Origin: Escherichia coli
Lineage (GTDB): Bacteria; Pseudomonadota; Gammaproteobacteria; Enterobacterales; Enterobacteriaceae
Length of the DNA: 64,000 bases
Strand: one strand, 5' to 3'
Assembly: GCF_003018235.1 (NCBI RefSeq)
Contig: NZ_CP027437.1
Shown here: positions 5,844 through 37,268 of the stretch, piece after piece
Layout: the number at the start of each line of letters is the position of its first letter
Position numbering within the stretch: the stretch's first letter is position 1
The notes under the pieces: generated by a model
What the model saw: only the letters and a program-made list of their open reading frames with translations
Told to the model about the DNA's origin: nothing
Databases searched by the model: none
Program-made: the position numbers and the translations under genes

Positions 5844-6275
5844 TTATTTATCCTGCGGCATTCCAAAACAAAAATTCAATAATGCTCCCCGCATCGCTTT
5901 ACGATCCTCCTCTGCCAGCGCCTGTGTTGAGGAATAGGTCAGCGTCAGTACTTGTCGCTCGTTCAGAATTACCAGCAGCAACTGCTGTATCATCACCCCC
6001 TTGTTATCCCAGCTAAATTCCCAGTATTCCGCCGGGCGCTCCTGTACATGACAGCGTTCTTCGACGGTGAACACCATTTTCGACAGTTCGGTACGGAATT
6101 TCTTTTTCTGCACCGCCAGATAGTCATCAAACTGCGCACCATCCGGCAATATTTCACGGGTAACAACAACATTAGCCCCGGCAATCGCACTTAATACCGG
6201 TGTCAGAATATTCATACTGCTGTCCTGCCAGTTTCCTGGCAGGGTGAAATGTCCTTCATTAATTAGATATTGCAT
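5844..6275 (-). CDS. EagR-like (DUF1795) effector-associated chaperone for the downstream PAAR-Rhs
   Basis: 143 aa; N-terminus MQYLINEGHFTLPGNWQDSSMNIL matches the typical DUF1795 start pattern (recalled). Sits directly upstream of an rhs with an N-terminal TM region. Confidence 0.7.
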   Translation of the reverse strand: MQYLINEGHFTLPGNWQDSSMNILTPVLSAIAGANVVVTREILPDGAQFDDYLAVQKKKFRTELSKMVFTVEERCHVQERPAEYWEFSWDNKGVMIQQLLLVILNERQVLTLTYSSTQALAEEDRKAMRGALLNFCFGMPQDK

Positions 6276-6480
6276 TCTCTTCCCCTGACATTAATTAAAA
6301 AAAATACCATTGATTTAATAATTGAATAACACCAAGATACTTGCATCATGAGTTTATATAGTTTTCCCGCCAACCTATATTTGTTTTTTCACACAAATAA
6401 GAATGTACTTACACACAAACCAATAAATCCACTGGTATCTAAAATAATTATTCTTTACATTATCTTAATCACAGATTTTA

Positions 6481-6930
6481 CTAATGGTTTCTCAAAAAAA
6501 TCTTTGCGTAATTAGGATTATTTAACTCTAAGTTCACCACATTAGATTTAAAATTATAAAAATCCGCATCTCTATCATCCTCTGTAACCTTTGAATCAAC
6601 CGTCGACCACACATTCGTATAAAAACTACACTCATGCTTTCCTGGCGTAATATGGTAATCTCTGGCAATTTGTACATAGTCCCCCACCTTCATTTCTCCG
6701 GGAGAGATTTTGTAATATTCCCCTTGTCCAAGGTTGTACATTACACCTGAATAACGAATCTTCTTGCCATCACATTCAACACTCAATTGATCGGAGCTCG
6801 GATATTTACCTTGAGATATGTACCTGACATCTATATATAATGGAATTTCACCATTATTTTTAACACGTACAGCAACATAAACGTCATCTTCTTTGGGTAT
6901 AACATCCACAATAACCATGTAACATGGCAT
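6481..6930 (-). CDS. Hypothetical protein downstream of vgrG; candidate immunity/partner for the VgrG C-terminal domain
   Basis: AT-rich ORF starting just after the vgrG stop; no obvious signal peptide; start codon uncertain (ATG at 6930 or 6918). Confidence 0.4.
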   Translation of the reverse strand: MPCYMVIVDVIPKEDDVYVAVRVKNNGEIPLYIDVRYISQGKYPSSDQLSVECDGKKIRYSGVMYNLGQGEYYKISPGEMKVGDYVQIARDYHITPGKHECSFYTNVWSTVDSKVTEDDRDADFYNFKSNVVNLELNNPNYAKIFLRNH

Positions 6931-6946
6931 CCATAAATTAAGCCTT

Positions 6947-9784
6947 TTATTCAAAATAACGTTCAAAGTTATAAGCACTTTGTAATGAGGCCCGCTTACC
7001 CTTTTTAGCTAGATCTATACCACCACTTCTTAAACCCTCATCAAAACTTCCGAGCACATCATAAAAATGTGACATTTCATGAATCAAAGTTATGACTTGT
7101 GAATCACGACCGTCCAGGGGATCGTCAATAAATTTATTTCCAAGATAAATGGTATGGGTATAATCTCCATCATTAACTCTTCCATGAACATTAACATCCA
7201 TAAATTCAAAATTTTGGTACTTAATCCCCTCATTAATTTCAATTTCTTTTTTTACAGCGTTTAAAATTTTATTCCTGGCTGCCTCATCATCAACACCGAA
7301 TATATTTCCAAAACGCTCTTTATCGTTATCATTCCAACGAATCAACTCATCTCTTGCTGATTTTAATTTTTTACGCTGCGCTTCAAGAACAAGTTTCATA
7401 TCATTTTCACTGATCCTTTTCTCCTCTATCATTTCATAAACAGGATTTCCATAATTATCTGTAAGAGGTTTTCCATTATATCCAATTATAGCTACTCCAT
7501 TACCCGGCCCTGATGTAGAAAAATCTCTAATTGTATTAATTTTATATTTACCATTTGCGTCACTACCGCCAGGATTCAGTGCCAAGTGAGTAGGTCCATC
7601 AAGGATGATAGTGCCGTCTGAATTCATCACGAGAGTGCTGCTTCCCACAGTCAACGTAATGTTCGTTGCCGCAGTCAAATGAATGGCACCAGATTTTGAT
7701 GTGATGGTAATATCCCCTTCGACAGTCTCCGTGCAGGTTCCCGTTTCTACCGTCACTTCGCGTTTACCCGTTTTCACCGTCAGAGACTGGTCACCTTCTG
7801 TCACAGTAATATCCCGGTTGCCTTTGATGGTTTCGGTGTGCTTACCCTCAACAAATTCTGTGCGATCGATTTTTACCGTAGATGTTTCGTTATGAATGAT
7901 GGTTTTCGTCCGATCTGCCTTTACCGTGTGTGTTTCGTTATTTTTCACGACGGTATTCAGATCTTTCTCCGCAAGAAACCTCACTTCTTCCGCACCTGTT
8001 TTATCGTCAAAGCGCAGCATGTTTCCGTTGGTCGGCCCGCCATACAGCGAGTGGCTGAATATCCCGCTCTGCGACGCCATGCCCGGCAATCCCCACGGCG
8101 GCATGGTGTCCTGGTTATAGGTGCGCCCTACAATGATCGGTAAATCCGGGTCGCCGTTTTTGAAATCCACCAGCACTTCCTGGCCGATGCGCGGGATCTG
8201 GATCATCCCGAATCCTTTCCCCGCCCACGGGTAGCTGACGCGGATCCAGCAGGAGCTGTTTTCGTCATTCTTTCCGTAACGGTCCCAGCCAAACTGGACC
8301 TTCACCCGGCCATATTTATCCGTCCAGATTTCCTGCCCCGCAGGGCCGGTGACGATGGCGCTCTGCGGGCCTTTGGTGTGGGGTTTGCTCAGGGTTCGCT
8401 GTGGGCGGTAAACTTCGCTGGTGGGATGCAGTTCAAACGTGGTGACATAGGTAAAATGCTGCTCCTGACCGCTGTGCTGCGCATTATCCCGTAAAAACAG
8501 CGTGGTCTGTACCAGTAGGTATTCCTGGTTGACCTCTGCCGTTGGATGATTCATCAGCGTAAAGGTGTAACCCGTCATGAGGGTGCGGATATGACCTGCC
8601 CCATGTGCCCGGCTGCCGGGGCTGCGCTGCGCTTCCATACGAATGCGCGTCAGCATCTCGCCTTCGCCCGTAGTGAAGTAATCACCAGGCCATTCATAAT
8701 GCTCGTATTCAGCATGACCGGTATCACGCGGACTAGCCACGGTACTTTTAAGCAGCGAACGAGGCTTCATAAAATCAAAATCGTCCATCACCCACTTTCC
8801 AGTACGTAGCCTCTCACTGGCCGTAATGGTGTGGATAAATTCCTTGTCCAGTTTCAGACCTTCCTGGTGCCACTCCACCAGTGGCGAGTCAGGGCACGCT
8901 TTATGACCATTGATGGCATCCGCCAGCACCAGCGTATGGCTGTTCTCGCTGTGCTCAAACCACCAGTAAATTCCCCACTCCTGCATCAGGCGCTGGATGA
9001 AATCAAAATCCGTTTCACCGTACTGTACCTGCCAGGCACGAGGTGGATAATTTTCCACCAGCCGTTTTTCCACCGGAAAGGAATATTCATCCAGTACTTC
9101 ATCGAGAATATCCACCACGGTTTTATTCTGGAACGCCTTGTAGTCGCTGGTATGGGTCAGCAGCTTCAGCCATGGCTCAATGCGTAATTCATACGTTACC
9201 GAACGGCCCTCATGGCCGACCACCCGCGCTGCCGTCACCAGCCCGCTGATATACCGTTTTTCGCCACCGTCCAGTTCAATACTGACGCACAGGTCTTTGC
9301 CCACCATGGGCTGAAGCGGCAGGTTGGCAGCGGGAGAAACGTAACCCAGGTTCAGGATGTCCGGCGTTTTAAGCTGTACTGTGTAGGAAAACAGATTCCC
9401 AAGTCCTTCCGAACCATTCATGCCTGCAAACAAAAGCAACTGCGGCGGCACCGCGCTACCACTTACTGTGACGTTATGCGCCCCCGGACCACCGGCTGCA
9501 AGCGACGACGCCGCATCCTGAACTGTACCAGCCATATCCGAGATCCCTACTGCAGCAGCGGCAGCCTGCGCAGCAGTTACTGCAGCTTTAACCAGACCTG
9601 ACGGTTCCGGCAACGCACCAAACAGGTCCGCCGCGGCCTGTTCTGCCATCTCCTCGGCGGCACCAGATACATCGGTTACGGCTGAACTGGCGCTTACAGC
9701 ACTACTTTCTCCGGCTATCGGTGGCGTGGAGATAGCTGGCCCACCGTTACTGCCAGATTTATTACTCGTAGATACAAAACTCAT
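6947..9784 (-). CDS. vgrG: VgrG (TssI) spike protein, 'evolved' type, with an AT-rich C-terminal extension containing an HExxH motif
   Basis: 945 aa. gp27-like region ([25 protein letters not shown]), gp5 OB-fold and beta-helix repeats (VKVQFGWD..., TVKxxR repeats). C-terminal about 180 aa is low GC and contains LIHEMSHF. Good SD (AAAGGA) upstream of the ATG at 9784. Confidence 0.9.
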
Positions 9785-15949: not shown

Positions 15950-16050
15950 TGCATCAAGGCGGCAAGCGAGAGGATCCCGAAGCATTTATTCCGGTAAGTG
16001 ACTCGGGTGAACGAGTGCAGTCAACGCAGAGGCAACCTGAAGGATAAGGT
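15950..16050. repeat. ERIC/IRU-like intergenic repeat
   Basis: Contains GGTAAGTGACTCGGGTGAACGAGTGCAGTCAACGCAGAGGCAACCTGAAGG, closely resembling the ERIC core (AAGTAAGTGACTGGGGTGAGCG...), in the gap between the Tldi1-like gene and tssM. Confidence 0.5.
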
Positions 16051-16057
16051 GTATACA

Positions 16058-16513
16058 TCAAAATTCTCTGGATAGAATAATATAGCCATTGAATCTTACG
16101 GAACACTCATTTTCATTAATAAGGCCGGATGCAATAACAACATCTTTCCCCCTGTCATTGTTAATATAGGTATATTTTGCCACAATAGACTTAGCATGAT
16201 TTTCATAGTAGCTATCAAAATACGATTTTTCATCTAACATTGCCTTCTTATTTCTGGCTTTGTCCTTCTCATAATCAATCTTAGCCAGAGACTCTGCATA
16301 AAACTTAGACACAGGAGAAACATCAAGAACTTCTACCCTTGTTTTATCTCTTAAAATAGTAGAAGAATTTATATTCAAATCACTTTTCATTGCATCAAAT
16401 AACGACAACTCTATTGAGGCTCCAACCGTAGCGCAACCATCATTTTGTGCATATGAAATTGCAGGTATGCCAGCTAACAGGCAGATTATTACCTTGAACA
16501 TATTAGTCCTCAA
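16058..16513 (-). CDS. Periplasmic protein, candidate Tldi1-like immunity protein
   Basis: 151 aa with signal peptide (MFKVIICLLAGIPAISYAQ); AT-rich; overlaps the upstream effector-like gene. Confidence 0.5.
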   Translation of the reverse strand: MRTNMFKVIICLLAGIPAISYAQNDGCATVGASIELSLFDAMKSDLNINSSTILRDKTRVEVLDVSPVSKFYAESLAKIDYEKDKARNKKAMLDEKSYFDSYYENHAKSIVAKYTYINNDRGKDVVIASGLINENECSVRFNGYIILSREF

Positions 16514-20223: not shown

Positions 20224-20709
20224 TTAAATTTCTTTGTTAGCTTTGAAATCGTAACCTGCCGTGATAGTGCCGCCGCTGCCGCCCTGCTGGTTCTGCACCA
20301 CGTATTCCTGCTTCACGGTGCTGAAAGAGAGTTCGACTGACTCACGAGAAGCTATTTCTCCCCCCTGACTCCCGCTGGGCGAAACCATTGCTACGATCAA
20401 ATCAGTAAAACTGTATTTGAGGTATTCCAGTGGGTTGCCGCCTGCTTTGCGCATGGTCAGCACGGCTTTCGGAATGTGTTTGCCGGAGGCGCAGTATTTG
20501 AACAGGTTCGGGCTGGCGCGATCGATATAGTGTTCAAATGAAAGATTAGTTACGGATACCTTGCCGGATCCCAGACCGCTACCCGCGTGCATGGTGGACT
20601 CCTGGTGGATATTCCAGCGCCAGCTCAACACCTCAATTTCATTTTTATGTTTGTCATCCATTGACTCGCCGTCAATGCCGTCAATTTTCAGAAAAATATC
20701 ATAAGACAT
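20224..20709 (-). CDS. hcp: Hcp (TssD) tube protein
   Basis: 161 aa; MSYDIFLKIDGIDGES... is a typical Hcp N-terminus. Confidence 0.92.
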   Translation of the reverse strand: MSYDIFLKIDGIDGESMDDKHKNEIEVLSWRWNIHQESTMHAGSGLGSGKVSVTNLSFEHYIDRASPNLFKYCASGKHIPKAVLTMRKAGGNPLEYLKYSFTDLIVAMVSPSGSQGGEIASRESVELSFSTVKQEYVVQNQQGGSGGTITAGYDFKANKEI

Positions 20710-20820
20710 ATTTCATACCTTTTATTTAAATTAATTTTGGTTTATCCGCTTACAAATAAACCATTACTTTACAACACTCTTCCACATATGGAATCGGCAG
20801 AACAAAGGATTGAATATATT

Positions 20821-21192
20821 TCATTTCTTAACACTCCTGGAAATCAACTCATCCAATTCATTTCCATGAATGAAATCTATACATTTCATAGTACTGAAGT
20901 CTGATGCTATAGAACCATCATATTTTAATGATGCATATTTTCTCGCTATCGCATCTATTTCACGAAAAATTTCTACAGGTTGCTGACCATATTCAAGATA
21001 AGCACTAGCTGTAGCTCTGGCATCATCCTGAACGACATCATTTTTATACACCAATGACAAACAATGACTCAAAGCCCAATTGCGTAAGAGCTCTGACTGA
21101 GAATATTTTTCAGTCAATGCTTCCTGAGCATAAGATAATTGACATATCTGTAGCCCACAGAGGCCCCAAAATATTAATTTCAGCCATTTCAT
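20821..21192 (-). CDS. tai4: Tai4-like periplasmic immunity protein
   Basis: Signal peptide (MKWLKLIFWGLCGLQICQLSYAQE); start ATG overlaps the tae4 stop (ATGA), suggesting translational coupling. Confidence 0.6.
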   Translation of the reverse strand: MKWLKLIFWGLCGLQICQLSYAQEALTEKYSQSELLRNWALSHCLSLVYKNDVVQDDARATASAYLEYGQQPVEIFREIDAIARKYASLKYDGSIASDFSTMKCIDFIHGNELDELISRSVKK

Positions 21193-23872: not shown

Positions 23873-24163
23873 TTAAAAATCATACGCAGAGAGTATTTTT
23901 ATAATCTCTTTGTTTTCTTTGTACTTTTCCCGAAGCACAGGGAGTGATTTCTTCGCCGGAGGACACCAGGTATCAACCCCCTTTTCGATGTCTCTTTTAT
24001 CCTTCTTTGGTAAAGAACTGTCCCATTCACCAGCAAGATGCTGGCACATTTCCGCATTACTCAGAAAATGCTGCACATCCTGTGGTAAAGGCGGTTCCCC
24101 CTGAACACAGAAAGCGAACATCATTAACAGGAATGTCAACAACATCGGATAACGAAATGTCAT
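23873..24163 (-). CDS. Small exported protein, candidate immunity protein for the adjacent zinc peptidase
   Basis: 96 aa; N-terminal signal peptide (MLLTFLLMMFAFCVQG); starts 3 bp after the upstream ORF stop. Confidence 0.45.
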   Translation of the reverse strand: MTFRYPMLLTFLLMMFAFCVQGEPPLPQDVQHFLSNAEMCQHLAGEWDSSLPKKDKRDIEKGVDTWCPPAKKSLPVLREKYKENKEIIKILSAYDF

Positions 24164-24165
24164 AC

Positions 24166-24729
24166 TTAATGTCCATCAATTGACCAGTGAGGTATATCTG
24201 TATTGCCGCCAACAAATTTTCTGACGCCGTAACCCAGACCTACCGCCTGAAGCTGGGCATTCATTCCGGTTCGAGGTAGTGTATTAATTGCAACATTCTG
24301 ACCATTGCTCCCCGCAATTGTTAATGTTCCGCTCCAACTGATATTCATATCTATCGCAGTACCGCGTGTATGGTTGGAGCTCAGTGCAGGCGCGACATTC
24401 AGATTATTCATACCATAGGCCGTAACCATAGCCTGCGCCGCTTCAAGCGAGGCTTGCTCAGTCGGGTGAACCCACTCAATATCCATCCCCTCCATCGCCG
24501 GGACGTTTTTTGCCTGAACGATTTCATGAGCAATCAACCATGACCAGTGCATGAGATATGCTCTGGCGGGAGGGCGATATGTTGCAGAGATACTGACCCT
24601 TGCACGCGCATTACCAAGCGCGCGCAAAAAATTATCTACCGATGCACGAAAAGTCCCCTGCAAATCATTAGTGGAAGAACTTCCAGGAAAGCGACTGACC
24701 CACAGTGCGCCACTTAATTCTTTTGCCAT
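24166..24729 (-). CDS. LAS/M15-type zinc peptidase-like protein (H-x6-D ... D-x2-H); candidate peptidoglycan-targeting T6SS effector
   Basis: 187 aa; SSNHTRGTAIDMN (SxHxxGxAxD-like) and TDIPHW motifs; no signal peptide; sits between clpV and tssB with a downstream signal-peptide ORF. Confidence 0.5.
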   Translation of the reverse strand: MAKELSGALWVSRFPGSSSTNDLQGTFRASVDNFLRALGNARARVSISATYRPPARAYLMHWSWLIAHEIVQAKNVPAMEGMDIEWVHPTEQASLEAAQAMVTAYGMNNLNVAPALSSNHTRGTAIDMNISWSGTLTIAGSNGQNVAINTLPRTGMNAQLQAVGLGYGVRKFVGGNTDIPHWSIDGH

Positions 24730-24741
24730 AAGGATGCTCCA

Positions 24742-26223
24742 TTAATCCGTTTCAAAAATAATCTGTTCATCCTCATCAACACGAATGCGGATTTGCGTGA
24801 TGGCCGTTTTCTCTGTCATCGCCTGCAACCAATAACGGGACAGTTGTGGGAGGATATGTTGTTCGATATAGCCGATGAGCAAACGAGCGCCGGTTTCGTG
24901 CATCGGGCAGCGCGACACAATATGCGTAATCAGTTCATCGCCATACACCAGTGAAACGCCATGCTGCTCCGCCATCCGATCCATCAATCTGCCAAGATGC
25001 AGGCGGGCAATAACACCACGCGCGGTCTCATCCAGCGGTAAATAAGGAATAACCGTCACACGCCCCAGGAAAGCCGCCGGGAAGTGTTTACGTAACTCCG
25101 GCATTAACGCCTCTTTTAGTCCTGCCGAATCAGGCATCAGCGCCGGATCCTTTTCGATATGGCGTTTGTACTCGCTCCAAGTGGTTGCGCCGATGGTGCG
25201 CAGGGTGCCACGCGCCAGCGCCGGTTTCAGCAGGTTGGCAGCATCCCCCGTACCGGATGTACCACCAGCGCCCACCAGCGTGTGAACTTCATCAACAAAA
25301 AGGATTACCGGCTGCGGCGAGCGCGCGGCCTCTTCTAGCAACGCTTTCAGGCGGGATTCAAATTCACCCTTCATGGACGCCCCAGCCAGCAGCGCTCCAA
25401 CATCCAGTGACAGCAACCGCACGTTACGCAGTGAAGGCGGTACTTCCCCCCCGGCAATCGCCAGCGCGAATCCTTCCACCACTGCCGTTTTCCCGACTCC
25501 CGCTTCGCCGGTCAGTAGCGGGTTGTTCTGGCGACGGCGCAGCAGAATATCCGTCATAGTACGGATCTCGTGTTCGCGACCGGTGACCGGATCGATATTG
25601 CCTTCACGGGCCAGCGCAGTCATGTCCTGGCAGTATTTCGCCAGCGCGGATTTGCTTCCGGTTGATTCGCCGGCAAAGACCTGGCTAGCTTCCCCCGGTA
25701 CTGCAGAATTTAAATCCGAGCCGTCATAAGGCATTTCTGTTAATTCAGGAGATGAAGTGATTAAAGACGGAAGAATATCTAATAGTTCATCTACCGGTAG
25801 CTCTGCCAATGGCGCACAAATATTTTTTAACACCCGACACAATTCTGGCGTGGTTAACCAGGCAAGTAATAACCATCCACTACGAATTTTTTTATCGCCA
25901 AAGCGGATACTTGCCAACATCCAGGCTTTTTCAACAGAAAGATCGATATGATGGGAAAAATCGTTAATTACACTCGCTCCGGCAGGCAATATATTCAATT
26001 GCTGAATTAACGCCTTCTCAACATCAGCAGATGTTATTTGATAATGTCGAAGCACATTGTGAATGTCATTCTCTGGTTGTTGTATTAACTGATGCAACCA
26101 ATGCGTCAGTTCGACATAAGGATTAGCGCGTAATTTACAGAACGTCGTCGCAGATTCCAAAGATCTAAACAAAGATTTGGTTAGCTTTCCATACAGTGCA
26201 CTGCGCGAAACAGGAGTGTCCAT
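24742..26223 (-). CDS. clpV: ClpV (TssH) AAA+ ATPase with an apparent in-frame internal deletion (N-domain plus first ATPase domain joined to the C-terminal small domain)
   Basis: 493 aa against about 850-900 expected. Walker A GEAGVGKT and Walker B ILFVDEVH of the first domain run to ...IEKDPAL, joined directly to ...[24 protein letters not shown]...GARLL..., the ClpB/ClpV C-terminal signature. Confidence 0.8.
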
Positions 26224-26555
26224 CTGTTACACCTAATGATGTAAGAACATATAAATGATACATAAACATAACTGTACCGATTAAAACTTCTAATTAATAG
26301 AATTATCAAAAAGGCCGAATGAAACAATGATGCATATCACAGAACACAATGTAATATAGCAGGTAGTATCTTTTTCATGGTGATATTCAATAGAGCAAGC
26401 CAATTTCATACATACCATGAATATATTAAATTGAAAATCGCCACTATATATTTCCGCGAAAACTTATATTGATAAAGTAAATTGATCAGCATTGCTTATC
26501 TAAAAATTTAGAAAACTTATTCTTTTGAAAGAAACATTCTACACAGTGATACACA
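26224..26555. promoter_or_regulatory. AT-rich divergent control region between the clpV operon and the tagH-tssA operon
   Basis: 332 bp, strongly AT-rich, between divergently transcribed T6SS operons; contains a GATC site near 26483. No promoter elements individually mapped. Confidence 0.5.
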
Positions 26556-27470
26556 ATGAAACCAAATATTACGTGGGGACTCCAAAAAATACAGGCGCAC
26601 GGGATCGCCGATAACACAATTTACGCGACTGAAGGAACCCAAATTATCTTCACCGTTACCTCACCCTGGATTCCTGTTTTTGAGGTGAATGATGATGTAA
26701 AGATTGCCCTCAGTCTGACCCGCCACGAAGAAGCATGGTGGATTATCAATCAGTCTACCGAATATTGCTGTACGGTAAACGACCAGATTGTGGAACCTCA
26801 TCACCGTATGCGTCTGAATGAAGGCGATCTGATAGAATGGGGGTTATCTTCATGGTGCCTTGTGCACGGCAATCCATCATCTCCGGACCTGAGCGCAGTA
26901 AATACGACATCGCAGACTGCCACCATGTCGGAAACAATAACCGAATATCTGGATCTGGATTGGTTCAGGCAGCAGCATCTGACATCACAAAATCCATTCG
27001 ATATCATTCCTGTTCATGGAGCCTCCTCCACTGGAGAAGATGCTAAAAAAGAAAATGCCCTGACTCGACTTTATCAGGAATACCGCGAGGCGTTGTTATC
27101 TCCTGAACAAGATCTTCATCGCCATGCTGATCCTTTTCCCTTTAACGAAGAGCCCTCCTCACAGGATCTGGATTCATTGCGTGATCTGGTCACTGAAGCC
27201 GAGACATTGCAGGATATGGTCACTGGCGGGTTAAGCATTGACGCTATTCTCGATGTCCTGGACGCCACCGGCGAAGGGGAAACCGCCTGGCCTGCCGAAA
27301 AGACGCCCCCAGATATCCTGCACCTGCTATCCCCGGAATGCGCACCGGAAACAGCGCATAACACCGTTCTACCCGACCTGACACGCAAAGAGCATCGCAT
27401 CATTGGCATTGACAGCCATTATCGGATAAACCCGGCACAACACGGAGAGATATCTCATGACAAACAATAA
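26556..27470 (+). CDS. T6SS-associated protein, possibly FHA-domain (TagH-like)
   Basis: 304 aa; first gene of the plus-strand operon; N-terminal region has a weak FHA-like pattern; C-terminal half is acidic and low complexity. Confidence 0.4.
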   Translation: MKPNITWGLQKIQAHGIADNTIYATEGTQIIFTVTSPWIPVFEVNDDVKIALSLTRHEEAWWIINQSTEYCCTVNDQIVEPHHRMRLNEGDLIEWGLSSWCLVHGNPSSPDLSAVNTTSQTATMSETITEYLDLDWFRQQHLTSQNPFDIIPVHGASSTGEDAKKENALTRLYQEYREALLSPEQDLHRHADPFPFNEEPSSQDLDSLRDLVTEAETLQDMVTGGLSIDAILDVLDATGEGETAWPAEKTPPDILHLLSPECAPETAHNTVLPDLTRKEHRIIGIDSHYRINPAQHGEISHDKQ

Positions 27471-28793: not shown

Positions 28794-30677
28794 ATGGATC
28801 CACGGCTACTGGAATACTACAACCGCGAACTGAGCTATCTGCGGGAAACGGGAGCCGAATTTGCCGCCCGTCATCCTAAAGTCGCCGCCCGACTGGGTAT
28901 GCAGGGAACGGATATTGCCGATCCGTATGTGGAGCGAATGGTCGAGGCCTTCAGCTTCCTGACCGCCCGCACGCAGCTAAAAATTGACGCTGAATTCCCC
29001 CGTTTCACCCAGCGTCTGCTGGAAGTGGTCAGCCCCAATTACGTCACACCCACGCCCTCAATGAGCGTGGCGCAGCTTCATCCCGATCCGGAAGAAGGCG
29101 ATCTGGCGAAGGGATTCACCGTCCCGCGCAACACGGCCTTTTTTTCCGCCATTCCGGAAGGCGAAAGTACCGCCTGCCAGTTTCGTAGCAGCCAGAATGT
29201 GACGCTGTGGCCACTTGCCATCGAAGAGGTGCGGCTGACCGCCGCGCCGCCGGATATGCCTGCCCTGCACCGCTACCTGCCAGCCAACATTCACGTCGCT
29301 GGTGCGCTGCGTATTACCCTGCGCACCTTTGGTGAACTGACGTTCAGTCAGCTTGCAGGGCTGAACAAGCTGCCATTTTATCTCTGCGGCGAGGAGCGCA
29401 CGGCCTCACACCTGTTCGAACTACTGCATACCAGCGCCATCGCGAGCCTGGCTGGCATTCCGGGGCATTTTGACGGCGCACTGGATGTGAATCTGAAACA
29501 GCCCGTTATGTACGAAGGCCTGGATCCGGATCAGGGACTGTTGCCGCTGGCGTGGAATGTGTTTCACGGCCATAACCTGCTACATGAATATTTTACCTGT
29601 CCGGAACGCTTCTTTTTTTTCACCCCGACAGGCCTGTCTGCCGGGTTACAGAAAATTAACGGCGGCGTGGCGGAGATTGTTATCCTGCTGAACCGCCTGC
29701 CGCCGGACTGGCTGATCCACCAGACAAACGCGGCACAGTTCAGCCTGTTCTGTACCCCAGTTATCAACCTGTTTCCCCGCGTCGCCGCCCGGATCGATGT
29801 CACGCACAGCACGACGGAACAGCATCTGGTGGTGGACAGAACCCATCCGCTGGATTATGAGGTGTTCTCGGTCCAGGAAGTGGAAGGGCTGGAAACTGAC
29901 ACCACACGGAAGATGGCCTTTCGCCCGCTCTACCACACCCGCAATAATGATGAAGGCAATCACGGACGTTATTTTTCCCTGCGCCGGGAGCCGCGCCGGT
30001 TGTCGGAAAATGCCCGCCGCTATGGCACCCGCACCTCCTATACAGGATCAGAAGTGTTCCTGTCGCTGGTTGACCAGTATGAAGCGCCGTACCCGGAAAA
30101 TCTGCGCCATATCACCATCACGGCTATGGTCACCAACCGCGATCTGCCCTGTCTTATTGCCCGCAATGGACGGGACGATCTGACCGTGGATGCGGCCATC
30201 CCGGTGGCGGGCGTGGGGCTTATCCGTCCGCCGCGTCCGCCGCAGCCTCCGCTGGCTGAACGTGAAATGGCCTGGCGGTTGATCCGCCAGTTATCCTTTA
30301 ACTATCTGCCGCTGGCCGATCTGGATCACCGTACCGGTGGTCAGGCGCTGCGCGATCTGCTTAACCTGTTTATTCCGGCGCATGACAGTCCGCAGTCGCG
30401 CCAGGTGCGCAGCCTGATTGGCTGCAACACCACCCCGGTCACCCGCCGTCTGCCCGGTTCCGGGCTGCTGGTCTATGGGCGCGGCGTCAGTTGTGAACTG
30501 ACCGTGGATGAGGAGGGGTTCTCCGGTATCAGTCCGTATCTGTTCGGTCTGGTGTTGGAGCACTATATCGCCCGTCATGTTTCCATTAATACCTTCTCGC
30601 AGATGACGCTGCACAGCATGCAGCGCGGCAAAATTATGACCTGGCCTGCCAGGGCGGGACAGCGGGGAAGCGTATGA
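28794..30677 (+). CDS. tssF: TssF baseplate protein
   Basis: 627 aa; MDPRLLEYYNRELSYLRETGAEFAARHPKVAARLG is a typical TssF N-terminus. Confidence 0.92.
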   Translation: MDPRLLEYYNRELSYLRETGAEFAARHPKVAARLGMQGTDIADPYVERMVEAFSFLTARTQLKIDAEFPRFTQRLLEVVSPNYVTPTPSMSVAQLHPDPEEGDLAKGFTVPRNTAFFSAIPEGESTACQFRSSQNVTLWPLAIEEVRLTAAPPDMPALHRYLPANIHVAGALRITLRTFGELTFSQLAGLNKLPFYLCGEERTASHLFELLHTSAIASLAGIPGHFDGALDVNLKQPVMYEGLDPDQGLLPLAWNVFHGHNLLHEYFTCPERFFFFTPTGLSAGLQKINGGVAEIVILLNRLPPDWLIHQTNAAQFSLFCTPVINLFPRVAARIDVTHSTTEQHLVVDRTHPLDYEVFSVQEVEGLETDTTRKMAFRPLYHTRNNDEGNHGRYFSLRREPRRLSENARRYGTRTSYTGSEVFLSLVDQYEAPYPENLRHITITAMVTNRDLPCLIARNGRDDLTVDAAIPVAGVGLIRPPRPPQPPLAEREMAWRLIRQLSFNYLPLADLDHRTGGQALRDLLNLFIPAHDSPQSRQVRSLIGCNTTPVTRRLPGSGLLVYGRGVSCELTVDEEGFSGISPYLFGLVLEHYIARHVSINTFSQMTLHSMQRGKIMTWPARAGQRGSV

Positions 30678-32857: not shown

Positions 32858-32934
32858 TGGCGGAACGGACGGGACTCGAACCCGCGACCCCCTGCGTGAC
32901 AGGCAGGTATTCTAACCGACTGAACTACCGCTCC
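32858..32934 (-). tRNA. aspV: tRNA-Asp (GUC)
   Basis: Reverse complement gives GGAGCGGTAGTTCAGTCGGTTAGAATACCTGCCTGTCACGCAGGGGGTCGCGGGTTCGAGTCCCGTCCGTTCCGCCA; lies next to dnaQ as in K-12. Downstream hairpin at 32821-32848. Confidence 0.97.
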
Positions 32935-35079: not shown

Positions 35080-35838
<759 letters not shown>

Positions 35839-35909
35839 TAAAACTTTCTTGTCATCGGCTCCGTTCGCCGTTATGATCGGTCGTCTTTTAAGCAACTATT
35901 GACACACAC

Positions 35910-37268
35910 ATGAAGGCAAAAGCGATATTACTCGCCTCTGTCCTGCTCGTGGGTTGCCAGAGTACCGGCAACGTTCAACAGCACGCACAGAGCCTTTCTG
36001 CAGCTGGTCAAGGGGAAGCAGCAAAGTTTACAAGTCAGGCACGATGGATGGACGATGGGACGTCTATCGCGCCAGATGGTGACTTGTGGGCTTTCATTGG
36101 CGACGAGCTAAAGATGGGAATTCCGGAAAATGACCGGATTCGCGAACAGAAACAGAAATATTTACGCAATAAGAGCTATCTCCACGATGTAACTTTACGG
36201 GCAGAGCCGTATATGTACTGGATAGCCGGGCAAGTTAAAAAACGTAACATGCCTATGGAACTGGTACTACTACCCATAGTGGAGAGCGCTTTTGATCCTC
36301 ACGCAACGTCTGGCGCCAATGCAGCAGGCATCTGGCAGATCATTCCGAGCACGGGGCGCAATTATGGTTTGAAACAGACCCGCAATTATGACGCGCGTCG
36401 CGATGTTGTTGCTTCAACAACTGCCGCGCTGAACATGATGCAGCGTCTGAACAAGATGTTTGACGGCGACTGGCTTCTGACCGTAGCGGCTTATAACAGC
36501 GGCGAAGGTCGAGTCATGAAGGCAATTAAAACGAACAAAGCACGTGGGAAATCCACGGACTTTTGGTCGTTACCGTTGCCGCAGGAAACGAAGCAGTACG
36601 TGCCTAAAATGCTGGCATTGAGCGATATTCTCAAAAACAGTAAACGTTATGGTGTACGTCTGCCGACGACCGATGAAAGCCGTGCTCTGGCGCGTGTACA
36701 CCTGAGTAGCCCGGTTGATATGGCGAAGGTTGCAGATATGGCGGGAATTTCCGTCAGCAAGCTGAAGACATTCAACGCTGGTGTGAAAGGCTCCACGCTG
36801 GGCGCAAGTGGCCCGCAGTACGTGATGGTGCCAAAGAAGCATGCAGATCAACTGCGTGAATCTCTGGCTTCGGGCGAAATTGCTGCTGTACAGTCGACGC
36901 TGGTTGCCGACAATACGCCGCTTAACAGCCGTGTTTACACCGTACGCTCTGGCGACACGCTTTCAAGCATCGCTTCACGTCTCGGCGTAAGCACCAAAGA
37001 TTTGCAGCAGTGGAACAAACTGCGCGGCTCTAAGCTGAAACCAGGCCAAAGTCTGACGATTGGCGCAGGTAGTAGCGCACAGCGGTTGGCAAACAACAGC
37101 GATAGCATTACTTATCGTGTGCGCAAAGGCGATTCGCTTTCAAGCATTGCTAAACGCCACGGCGTGAACATCAAAGATGTGATGCGCTGGAACAGCGATA
37201 CTGCGAATCTGCAACCAGGCGATAAGCTGACGTTGTTTGTGAAAAACAACAACATGCCAGATTCCTGA
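35910..37268 (+). CDS. mltD: Membrane-bound lytic murein transglycosylase D (lipoprotein with LysM repeats)
   Basis: 452 aa; lipobox LLVGCQ; C-terminal LysM repeats (YTVRSGDTLSSIA..., YRVRKGDSLSSIA...). Confidence 0.93.
   Translation: MKAKAILLASVLLVGCQSTGNVQQHAQSLSAAGQGEAAKFTSQARWMDDGTSIAPDGDLWAFIGDELKMGIPENDRIREQKQKYLRNKSYLHDVTLRAEPYMYWIAGQVKKRNMPMELVLLPIVESAFDPHATSGANAAGIWQIIPSTGRNYGLKQTRNYDARRDVVASTTAALNMMQRLNKMFDGDWLLTVAAYNSGEGRVMKAIKTNKARGKSTDFWSLPLPQETKQYVPKMLALSDILKNSKRYGVRLPTTDESRALARVHLSSPVDMAKVADMAGISVSKLKTFNAGVKGSTLGASGPQYVMVPKKHADQLRESLASGEIAAVQSTLVADNTPLNSRVYTVRSGDTLSSIASRLGVSTKDLQQWNKLRGSKLKPGQSLTIGAGSSAQRLANNSDSITYRVRKGDSLSSIAKRHGVNIKDVMRWNSDTANLQPGDKLTLFVKNNNMPDS

Follow-up and report, generated by a model that had tools for sequence, protein, structure and literature searches.

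The 332-bp gap at positions 26224–26555 of the window (the whole 64-kb stretch of Escherichia coli DNA analysed here) probably serves both operons of an SPI-6-type T6SS inserted at aspV as their common divergent promoter and regulatory region, in which H-NS would nucleate on AT-rich DNA and a short conserved core would carry two back-to-back promoters and a palindromic candidate operator. From this region, tssH together with structural and effector genes would be driven leftward, and tagK-tagJ-tssEFGA rightward. For the Salmonella orthologue of the gap, H-NS silencing and Fur repression are already known.

The gap extends between two divergent ATG codons, the start of the minus-strand ORF at 26223 (the CAT at 26221–26223 bounds the gap on the left) and the start of the plus-strand ORF at 26556. 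The same start codons and the same 332-bp gap are annotated by RefSeq in E. coli MEI003, the locus of which is 99.9% identical, and the extent given in the original prediction is borne out by both the ORF starts and this annotation. The strong AT-richness that had been claimed was also found: the GC content of the gap is 0.28, whereas the window has 0.519 and the T6SS cluster 0.525, and only 0.13% of all 332-bp segments are equally AT-rich. TpA steps occur at 12 per 100 bp versus 4.6, which is 2.6 times the window average. All 15 orthologous gaps examined have GC contents of 23–30% and lengths of 330–423 bp; at one locus, whose TagK is only 30% identical, a gap of 24% GC lies within a 43%-GC background. 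Because it is present in all the orthologues examined, the AT-richness is, on this comparison of sequences, a conserved property rather than a product of chance.

On the left, the gap is bounded by tssH (clpV; 24742–26223, minus strand), which was identified from Pfam and NCBIfam matches and with blastn against the MEI003 tssH. It is the first gene of the left operon and is followed on the same strand by two small ORFs, tssB, tssC, tae4, tai4, and hcp and, further left, by tssJ, tssK, tssL, tssM, vgrG, and rhs. On the right, tagK (26556–27470, plus strand; NCBIfam NF033418, RefSeq, and downstream Pfam matches) heads an operon of tagK, tagJ, tssE, tssF, tssG, and tssA, beyond which lie tRNA-Asp, dnaQ, and rnhA. 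The flanking genes had been named clpV and tagH. The first name holds, although the gene is a deletion derivative here, but the second does not. The right-hand gene is not tagH, because its product matches the TagK family NF033418 over its full length (E = 4e-166) and a Pfam search found neither an FHA domain nor a match of any other kind. Otherwise, there is support for seeing the gap as the regulatory region of two divergent T6SS operons.

The island boundary is marked by the tRNA-Asp gene aspV (32858–32934, minus strand; ARAGORN and the RefSeq annotation of MEI003), just past the right operon. By its architecture, with divergent tssH and tagK-tagJ operons, and by its insertion site adjoining aspV, the cluster is an SPI-6-type T6SS. 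The divergent tssH/tagK arrangement was also found in Salmonella, Citrobacter koseri, C. amalonaticus, two Enterobacter species, E. marmotae, other Escherichia, and several metagenomic contigs. A scan of genome contigs with TagK alone yielded just five loci, none of them from Salmonella; Salmonella and the other genera were brought in via protein homologues and the contigs that encode them. Among 5,426 complete E. coli genomes, 119 (~2%) carry this gap allele, which is thus rare in the species, all at ≥96.5% identity in a sensitive blastn search. Apart from these near-identical copies, the search, which covered all the complete genomes of the species, detected no diverged homologue. Since the gap has no diverged DNA relatives in the species, the aspV T6SS clusters of EHEC and B2 strains belong to a different lineage and are not comparable with it at the DNA level.

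The closest known counterpart is the sciG(clpV)/sciF region of SPI-6 in Salmonella Typhimurium, which occupies the same aspV site in the same divergent arrangement. The gene order is also the same, with tssH, a small ORF, tssB, tssC, tae4, tai4, and hcp on one side and tagK-tagJ-tssEFG-tssA on the other. The SPI-6 gap is 368 bp long with a GC content of 26%, compared with 332 bp and 28% in the window, and the core that the two gaps have in common comprises the palindrome and both −10-like hexamers described below, at identical spacing. Outside this core and the tssH leader, however, the SPI-6 gap is essentially unalignable to that of the window. Moreover, it is for the Salmonella allele only that H-NS and Fur binding have been demonstrated.

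The suggestion that the gap is a site of H-NS silencing is supported by its orthology with the Salmonella clpV promoter, by its AT-richness, and by its location on a patchily distributed, tRNA-Asp-linked island. The Salmonella clpV promoter is bound by H-NS in EMSA and ITC (Li et al. 2023, PMC10657408), is occupied by H-NS in vivo according to ChIP-qPCR, and is derepressed in an hns mutant (PMC10657408). When the primers in the supplementary table of PMC10657408 were placed on our alignment, the ChIP amplicon, bounded by the clpV start codon and the conserved block, corresponded to window positions 26215–26336, and the EMSA probe corresponded to positions 26218–26398. In RNA-seq data from Salmonella SL1344, sciF and sciG are silent, with TPM values of 1–5. 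A similar behaviour is described for another E. coli aspV T6SS island, z0243–z0275 of EHEC O157:H7, which is repressed by H-NS, being silent in vitro but derepressed once hns is mutated (PMC5363993); however, this island shows no detectable DNA homology to the gap in a sensitive blastn search and represents a different T6SS lineage.

The gap thus has the features of a xenogeneic silenced promoter: an AT content that is far above the host average and conserved among orthologues, a position in patchy acquired DNA (119 of 5,426 genomes, tRNA-linked), and an orthologue that is bound by H-NS experimentally. Argued by analogy with that orthologue, H-NS silencing is the best-supported mechanism for the gap. 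We presume that the whole of 26224–26555 acts as the nucleation region, from its GC content, its TpA steps, the orthologous gaps, and the placement of the Salmonella primers. The extreme AT content would provide the nucleation site, and both operons would be silent under ordinary conditions, as they are in Salmonella. Two points weigh against this part of the model. The evidence of H-NS binding is carried over from Salmonella, the gap of which has only the core and the AT bias in common with that of the window, and enrichment of the H-NS nucleation motif is weak: the gap has three 8/10 matches compared with 1.1 expected (P = 0.11), a difference that does not reach significance by itself.

Conservation was assessed with an alignment of 12 orthologous gaps, most of which is unalignable between genera. 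A core of 60 bp (26317–26376) is common to the 12 orthologues. The 42-nt tssH 5′ leader with its ribosome-binding region (26224–26265, minus strand) is also conserved, with 17 columns that are invariant among the 12 orthologues and 4 of 42 positions that vary within Escherichia. Within the core, the invariant elements are AAACAATGAT, an ATCA, the AA at 26353–26354, and the TA..AT of 26364–26369. The first two belong to a conserved block, AAACAATGAT-gcat-ATCAcaG (26322–26343), whose invariant parts, AAACAATGAT-N4-ATCA-nnG, were found in all 12 sequences and which we regard as a candidate operator. An identical block occurs in three further lineages, 101–103 nt from the tssH start. Within Escherichia, no polymorphism was detected in 26322–26344 or in 26364–26369, whereas the flanking positions 26363 and 26371 vary, as do 54% of the columns in 26377–26460. 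Both the comparison between genera and the polymorphism within Escherichia point to purifying selection on the core, and hence to a function.

Two back-to-back promoters can be placed in this core, and both operons would initiate within 26317–26376. The placement is derived from conservation only. On the minus strand, a −10-like hexamer toward tssH lies at 26327–26332 and reads CATCAT here and TATCAT in all eight non-Escherichia sequences. It has A at its second position and T at its sixth in all 12 sequences, and T at its first position as well in 8 of the 12. Separated from it by a 16-bp spacer is a −35-like hexamer at 26349–26354 (TTACAT here, TTGnnn in other genera), the TT of which corresponds to the invariant AA at 26353–26354. 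In five genera, TATCAT with TTGnnn 16–17 bp upstream is the top position-conserved candidate on the minus strand, and transcription of tssH is predicted to start near 26320. On the plus strand, the hexamer toward tagK at 26364–26369 reads TAGTAT here and TAATAT in most other genera. When every alignment position was considered on both strands, this was the only hexamer with T, A, and T at its first, second, and sixth positions in 12 of 12 sequences (background: 3.6% per position). The predicted tagK start lies near 26376, and no −35 match toward tagK was found, so that this promoter would have no usable −35 element.

These candidates are conserved in position, but none of them scores above dinucleotide shuffles. 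A strict sigma-70 scan of 26100–26700 found no sites compared with 2.7 expected, a result that is uninformative in AT-rich DNA. A home-made sigma-70 PWM, based on approximate consensus frequencies from the literature and used only to find position-conserved candidates, gave its best score in the window (10.4; P = 0.48, not above shuffles) to a different site, at 26280–26309. Because no promoter score from a single sequence exceeds the shuffles, the argument for the promoters in the core is made from conservation alone. The start sites are predictions; the Salmonella locus is silent in RNA-seq, and the supplementary TSS and RNA-seq tables for Salmonella give no start site for it. Other signals were also sought. 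The best matches to a sigma-54 promoter (TGGCAC-N5-TTGCW, with GG at −24 and GC at −12) scored 6–7 of 10; none of them lay in the gap, and none kept the GG together with the GC. The ops element of RfaH (GGCGGTAGnnTG), the search for which was prompted by bioRxiv 10.1101/2025.02.08.637259, was absent from the coding strands of both operons, with matches at chance level. No terminators were found in 26100–26700.

An alternative is that the gap is an AT-rich, H-NS-coated spacer, that the promoters are lineage-specific and lie elsewhere, and that the block is the site of another factor or a remnant. In this scenario, tssH would be transcribed, for example, from the site at 26280–26309 (minus strand), an Escherichia-specific candidate with TTGATA (26304–26309) and TTTAAT (26280–26285) separated by 18 bp, which is the best sigma-70 match in the window, and tagK would be transcribed from near 26422. 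At 26422–26427 (plus strand) there is indeed a second, weaker −10-like element toward tagK that is conserved in position; it reads TATATT here and TATAAT in Enterobacter, C. koseri, and the metagenomic contig L013, and it has T, A, and T at the first, second, and sixth positions in 7 of 12 sequences. The degradation of both the ancestral −10 and the ancestral −35 of tssH in Escherichia is also in line with this scenario. On the other hand, the −10 of the 26280 candidate does not have A at its second position, the critical −11 A, and the candidate is not conserved outside Escherichia, whereas the core is under purifying selection across genera and within Escherichia. We therefore consider the spacer scenario unlikely. 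It is far less probable still that the gap holds a gene for a small protein or small RNA. A 42-aa ORF with an ATG start does occupy 26290–26418 on the minus strand, but it is broken by stop codons in strains E69 and E1V33 and in all the other genera, and the gap gave no Rfam match at E ≤ 1 under permissive thresholds and no terminator-like site.

In our preferred model, with promoters in the core, the candidate operator lies between and upon them. The conserved block contains the palindrome TGAT-N4-ATCA (TGATGCATATCA, 26328–26339, centred on 26333.5), the core of which is invariant in all 12 sequences and which is one of only two exact matches in the 64-kb window. The palindrome overlaps the tssH −10. 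In every lineage, its centre is 30.5 bp from the first base of the 26364–26369 hexamer, which would place it at about −42.5 of the tagK promoter, assuming the standard distance from −10 to +1. On the simplest reading, it would be the operator through which a dimeric regulator ties the two promoters together. One feature of this arrangement is awkward: a single operator that covers the tssH −10 and occupies an activating position for tagK would imply opposite regulation of the two operons of one machine.

The half-site spacing would fit a CRP/FNR-family protein. The FNR half-site is TTGA and that of CRP is GTGA, and the FNR consensus is TTGAT-N4-ATCAA. The palindrome has the inverted-repeat spacing of this family (TGA-N6-TCA), and specifically the FNR-like form TGAT-N4-ATCA, and on the other strand its right half reads GTGAT in most sequences, which is CRP-like. 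At class II CRP/FNR promoters, the activator site lies near −41.5 and there is no functional −35, and single CRP-family sites can serve divergent promoters. The gap resembles these promoters in having an inverted repeat between divergent promoters, a conserved −10 at a fixed distance from it, which would place the repeat at about −42.5, and no −35 match toward tagK. It differs from them in that the outer bases are inconsistent, the spacing is 1 bp from the canonical −41.5, and the score is at chance. Specifically, the palindrome scores 8/10 against the FNR consensus, in the same class as dozens of other sites, and 13/22 against the 22-mer CRP consensus (P = 0.67), both at the chance level for a single sequence. 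The base that discriminates FNR (T) from CRP (G) is not conserved, with A on the left and a variable C, G, or T on the right. An FNR scan of the window with up to two mismatches gave 50 matches compared with 30 expected, mostly in coding sequence, and was of no help in locating a regulon. In other enterobacteria, FNR directly regulates T6SS promoters, namely that of vgrG in APEC O1 (PMC5481319) and that of tssB in K. pneumoniae (PMC11754592), and our literature search found nothing on FNR or CRP acting on the SPI-6 T6SS family. Taken together, we assign the palindrome to the CRP/FNR-type operators only tentatively, as a possibility on the unlikely side.

An alternative with support in the literature is that the block serves chiefly as a Fur operator over the tssH/clpV core promoter. 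Iron-loaded Fur would then cover the −10 and the start site, iron limitation would derepress the left operon, and no CRP/FNR factor would be involved. Fur is reported to bind directly to the Salmonella clpV promoter, with derepression in a fur mutant (Wang et al. 2019, as cited in PMC10482370, PMC12288458, and PMC10657408). The block overlaps the candidate tssH −10 and contains AATGATA, a heptamer resembling the Fur core, and its version in Enterobacter ENT03 scores 12/19 at exactly the position of the block. In contrast, the block in the window matches the Fur 19-mer at about 10 of 19 positions by manual count, while the best match anywhere in the gap is 13/19 (P = 0.36). Furthermore, Fur boxes have a 7-1-7 or hexamer-repeat geometry, and the TGAT-N4-ATCA spacing is unlike either. 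Thus, a role of the block as chiefly a Fur operator is a real possibility, albeit one that we hold to be rather less than probable. The CRP/FNR and Fur readings of the block are not mutually exclusive with H-NS silencing; both are compatible with it.

The original prediction also noted a GATC (Dam) site near 26483 and drew an analogy with the Fur/Dam control of another E. coli T6SS promoter. The site is present at 26484–26487 and is the sole GATC in the gap. Because this count matches the compositional expectation (0.8–0.9 expected; P(≥1) = 0.62 in dinucleotide shuffles), the site is probably incidental and not a signal in itself. It occurs in one Escherichia subclade only, being destroyed in two divergent Escherichia alleles, by a G-to-A change in Escherichia sp. 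E1V33 and by an A-to-T change in E. coli E69, and in the alignment it is absent at this position from Salmonella, Citrobacter, and Enterobacter, in a right-hand part of the gap that is poorly conserved. We can ascribe no demonstrable role to it.

An epigenetic switch like that of sci1, in which methylation of this GATC versus Fur binding would set the ON and OFF states, is accordingly very unlikely here. Such a switch is real for the sci1 cluster of EAEC (Brunet 2011 and 2020, as cited in PMC10482370), and both regions are E. coli T6SS promoter regions with a GATC, here in AT-rich DNA, under global regulators. However, in sci1 a Fur box overlaps the GATC, whereas in the gap no Fur-like site scoring at least 12/19 overlaps 26484–26487, and no conserved −10-like element adjoins the GATC, which is unconserved, independently lost in E69 and E1V33, and at chance frequency. 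In addition, sci1 is a T6SS cluster of another family, in which the genes are ordered differently. A sci1-type switch therefore fails each of its defining features in the gap and is not supported, and the analogy does not carry over. The best Fur-like 19-mer (13/19) lies at 26289–26307 and does not exceed dinucleotide shuffles, in agreement with the caution of the original prediction, which had not confidently identified a Fur box.

A different GATC is conserved across the family. In all eight non-Escherichia sequences, the palindrome contains a GATC (cAGATCAc) that overlaps the right half-site, and a different spacer does not remove it, as Enterobacter ENT03 shows (AACGATCA). In Escherichia, every allele has cATATCAc at this place, the site having been lost by a G-to-T change. 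From the alignment, the sole family-conserved GATC is thus the one in the palindrome, not the one at 26484, and it is absent from the window. The Salmonella core accordingly reads TATCAT, TTGCTA, and GATC in the palindrome where the window reads CATCAT, TTACAT, and TATC. The Escherichia allele departs from those of the other genera by T to C in the tssH −10, by G to A in the −35, and by G to T in the palindromic GATC, so that its tssH promoter is probably weaker or more dependent on an activator.

A more specific proposal, which we regard as doubtful, is the following: the TGAT-N4-ATCA operator, deeply conserved and not described before, would let one dimer of the CRP/FNR family (e.g., FNR, in gut anaerobiosis) control both operons, the GATC of the non-Escherichia alleles would be potentially sensitive to Dam, and the Escherichia allele would be regulated differently. 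If true, this would amount to a Dam-modulated switch at another place, and with another partner, than originally proposed. The gap is the kind of control region to be expected for a T6SS acquired by horizontal transfer, and by itself it changes little for the field. Nevertheless, the core, with its precise candidate −10 elements and palindromic operator, is directly testable in Salmonella, where there is active research on how bile, c-di-GMP, iron, and H-NS regulate the SPI-6 T6SS, and it is precisely at the bases defining the tssH promoter and the family-conserved GATC that the E. coli version departs from the others.

As a separate observation, the tssH gene of the window lacks 1,152 bp owing to an in-frame internal deletion, as revealed by blastn against the MEI003 tssH. 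Its product has 493 amino acids, compared with 877 in its relatives, and lacks residues 363–742; the N-domain and the D1 Walker A and B motifs are retained, whereas the D2 Walker A and B motifs are lost. The breakpoints coincide with two copies of a 15-bp direct repeat, TCAGCGCCGGATCCT, with the junction at 25137–25151 of the window. This repeat encodes a DPAL motif that is found in both AAA+ modules. A search of the 5,426 complete E. coli genomes did not find this junction in any of them, and the deletion is private to the strain of the window. Because the D2 ATPase module of ClpV has been lost, the T6SS machine governed by the gap is probably crippled in this strain. Decay of tssH was also observed in other copies of the cluster: the gene carries a frameshift in strain 6EVA, and in XJ34 and the metagenomic contig L013 it is cut off and fused to an Rhs remnant.

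The tssH (clpV) gene of the window (24742-26223, minus strand) carries an in-frame deletion of 1,152 bp, the junction of which lies at 25137-25151. The deletion is flanked by a 15-bp direct repeat, TCAGCGCCGGATCCT, the two copies of which encode the DPAL motif of the first (D1) and second (D2) AAA+ modules of ClpV. Loss of the segment between the repeat copies resulted in a 493-amino-acid D1/D2 hybrid TssH, from which the Walker A and B motifs of D2 are missing, and this strain probably has an impaired T6SS. The same junction was found in none of 5,426 complete E. coli genomes. In other carriers of the cluster, tssH has decayed in different forms: E. coli 6EVA (L018) contains a frameshift, and in both E. 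coli XJ34 (L021, 2579-3550) and a metagenomic contig (L013, 737-2662), the gene is truncated and joined to an Rhs remnant. The decay of tssH in these three carriers represents independent events. In XJ34 and L013, most of the left operon, which begins with tssH, is gone; both keep the tagK operon as well as the AT-rich intergenic promoter gap.

Two small conserved ORFs, both annotated as hypothetical proteins, are located on the minus strand between tssH and tssB. The shorter (23873-24163, 96 amino acids) gave a weak thioredoxin-like match (StoA, CxxC) at E = 1e-6, which falls far short of the family cut-off. The longer (24166-24729, 187 amino acids) matched no family and had no counterpart at the Salmonella locus.

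Within the promoter gap, the conserved TGAT-N4-ATCA palindrome, a candidate operator, contains a GATC (cAGATCAc) in all eight non-Escherichia orthologues (L008 from Salmonella, L006, L007, L010, L011, L013, L014, and L016). This GATC overlaps the right half-site of the palindrome and is located approximately 114-116 nt from the tssH start (145 nt in L010), equivalent to 26335-26338 in the window. It is replaced by TATC in all Escherichia alleles. The GATC-containing palindrome of the non-Escherichia genera may be a Dam-sensitive operator.

A 94-nt "tRNA-His" called by ARAGORN at 30460-30553 sits inside the tssF coding sequence and is almost certainly a false positive.

Other strongly AT-rich patches (GC ≤ 0.33) were found in the T6SS island at approximately 838-1366, 6148-6728, 6932-7569, 16040-16420, and 20598-21056, near effector, immunity, and orphan genes, in the vgrG 3' region, in the region of the tlde1-domain gene, and in the tai4-hcp interval. 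Because the hcp1 and vgrG promoters of Salmonella are repressed by H-NS (PMC10657408), the AT-rich tai4-hcp interval is, by analogy, likely to be a further H-NS-targeted promoter. At the 332-bp scale, a patch with GC ≤ 0.33 also occurred outside the island, at 35468-35912, in core-genome DNA around the 3' portion of gloB.
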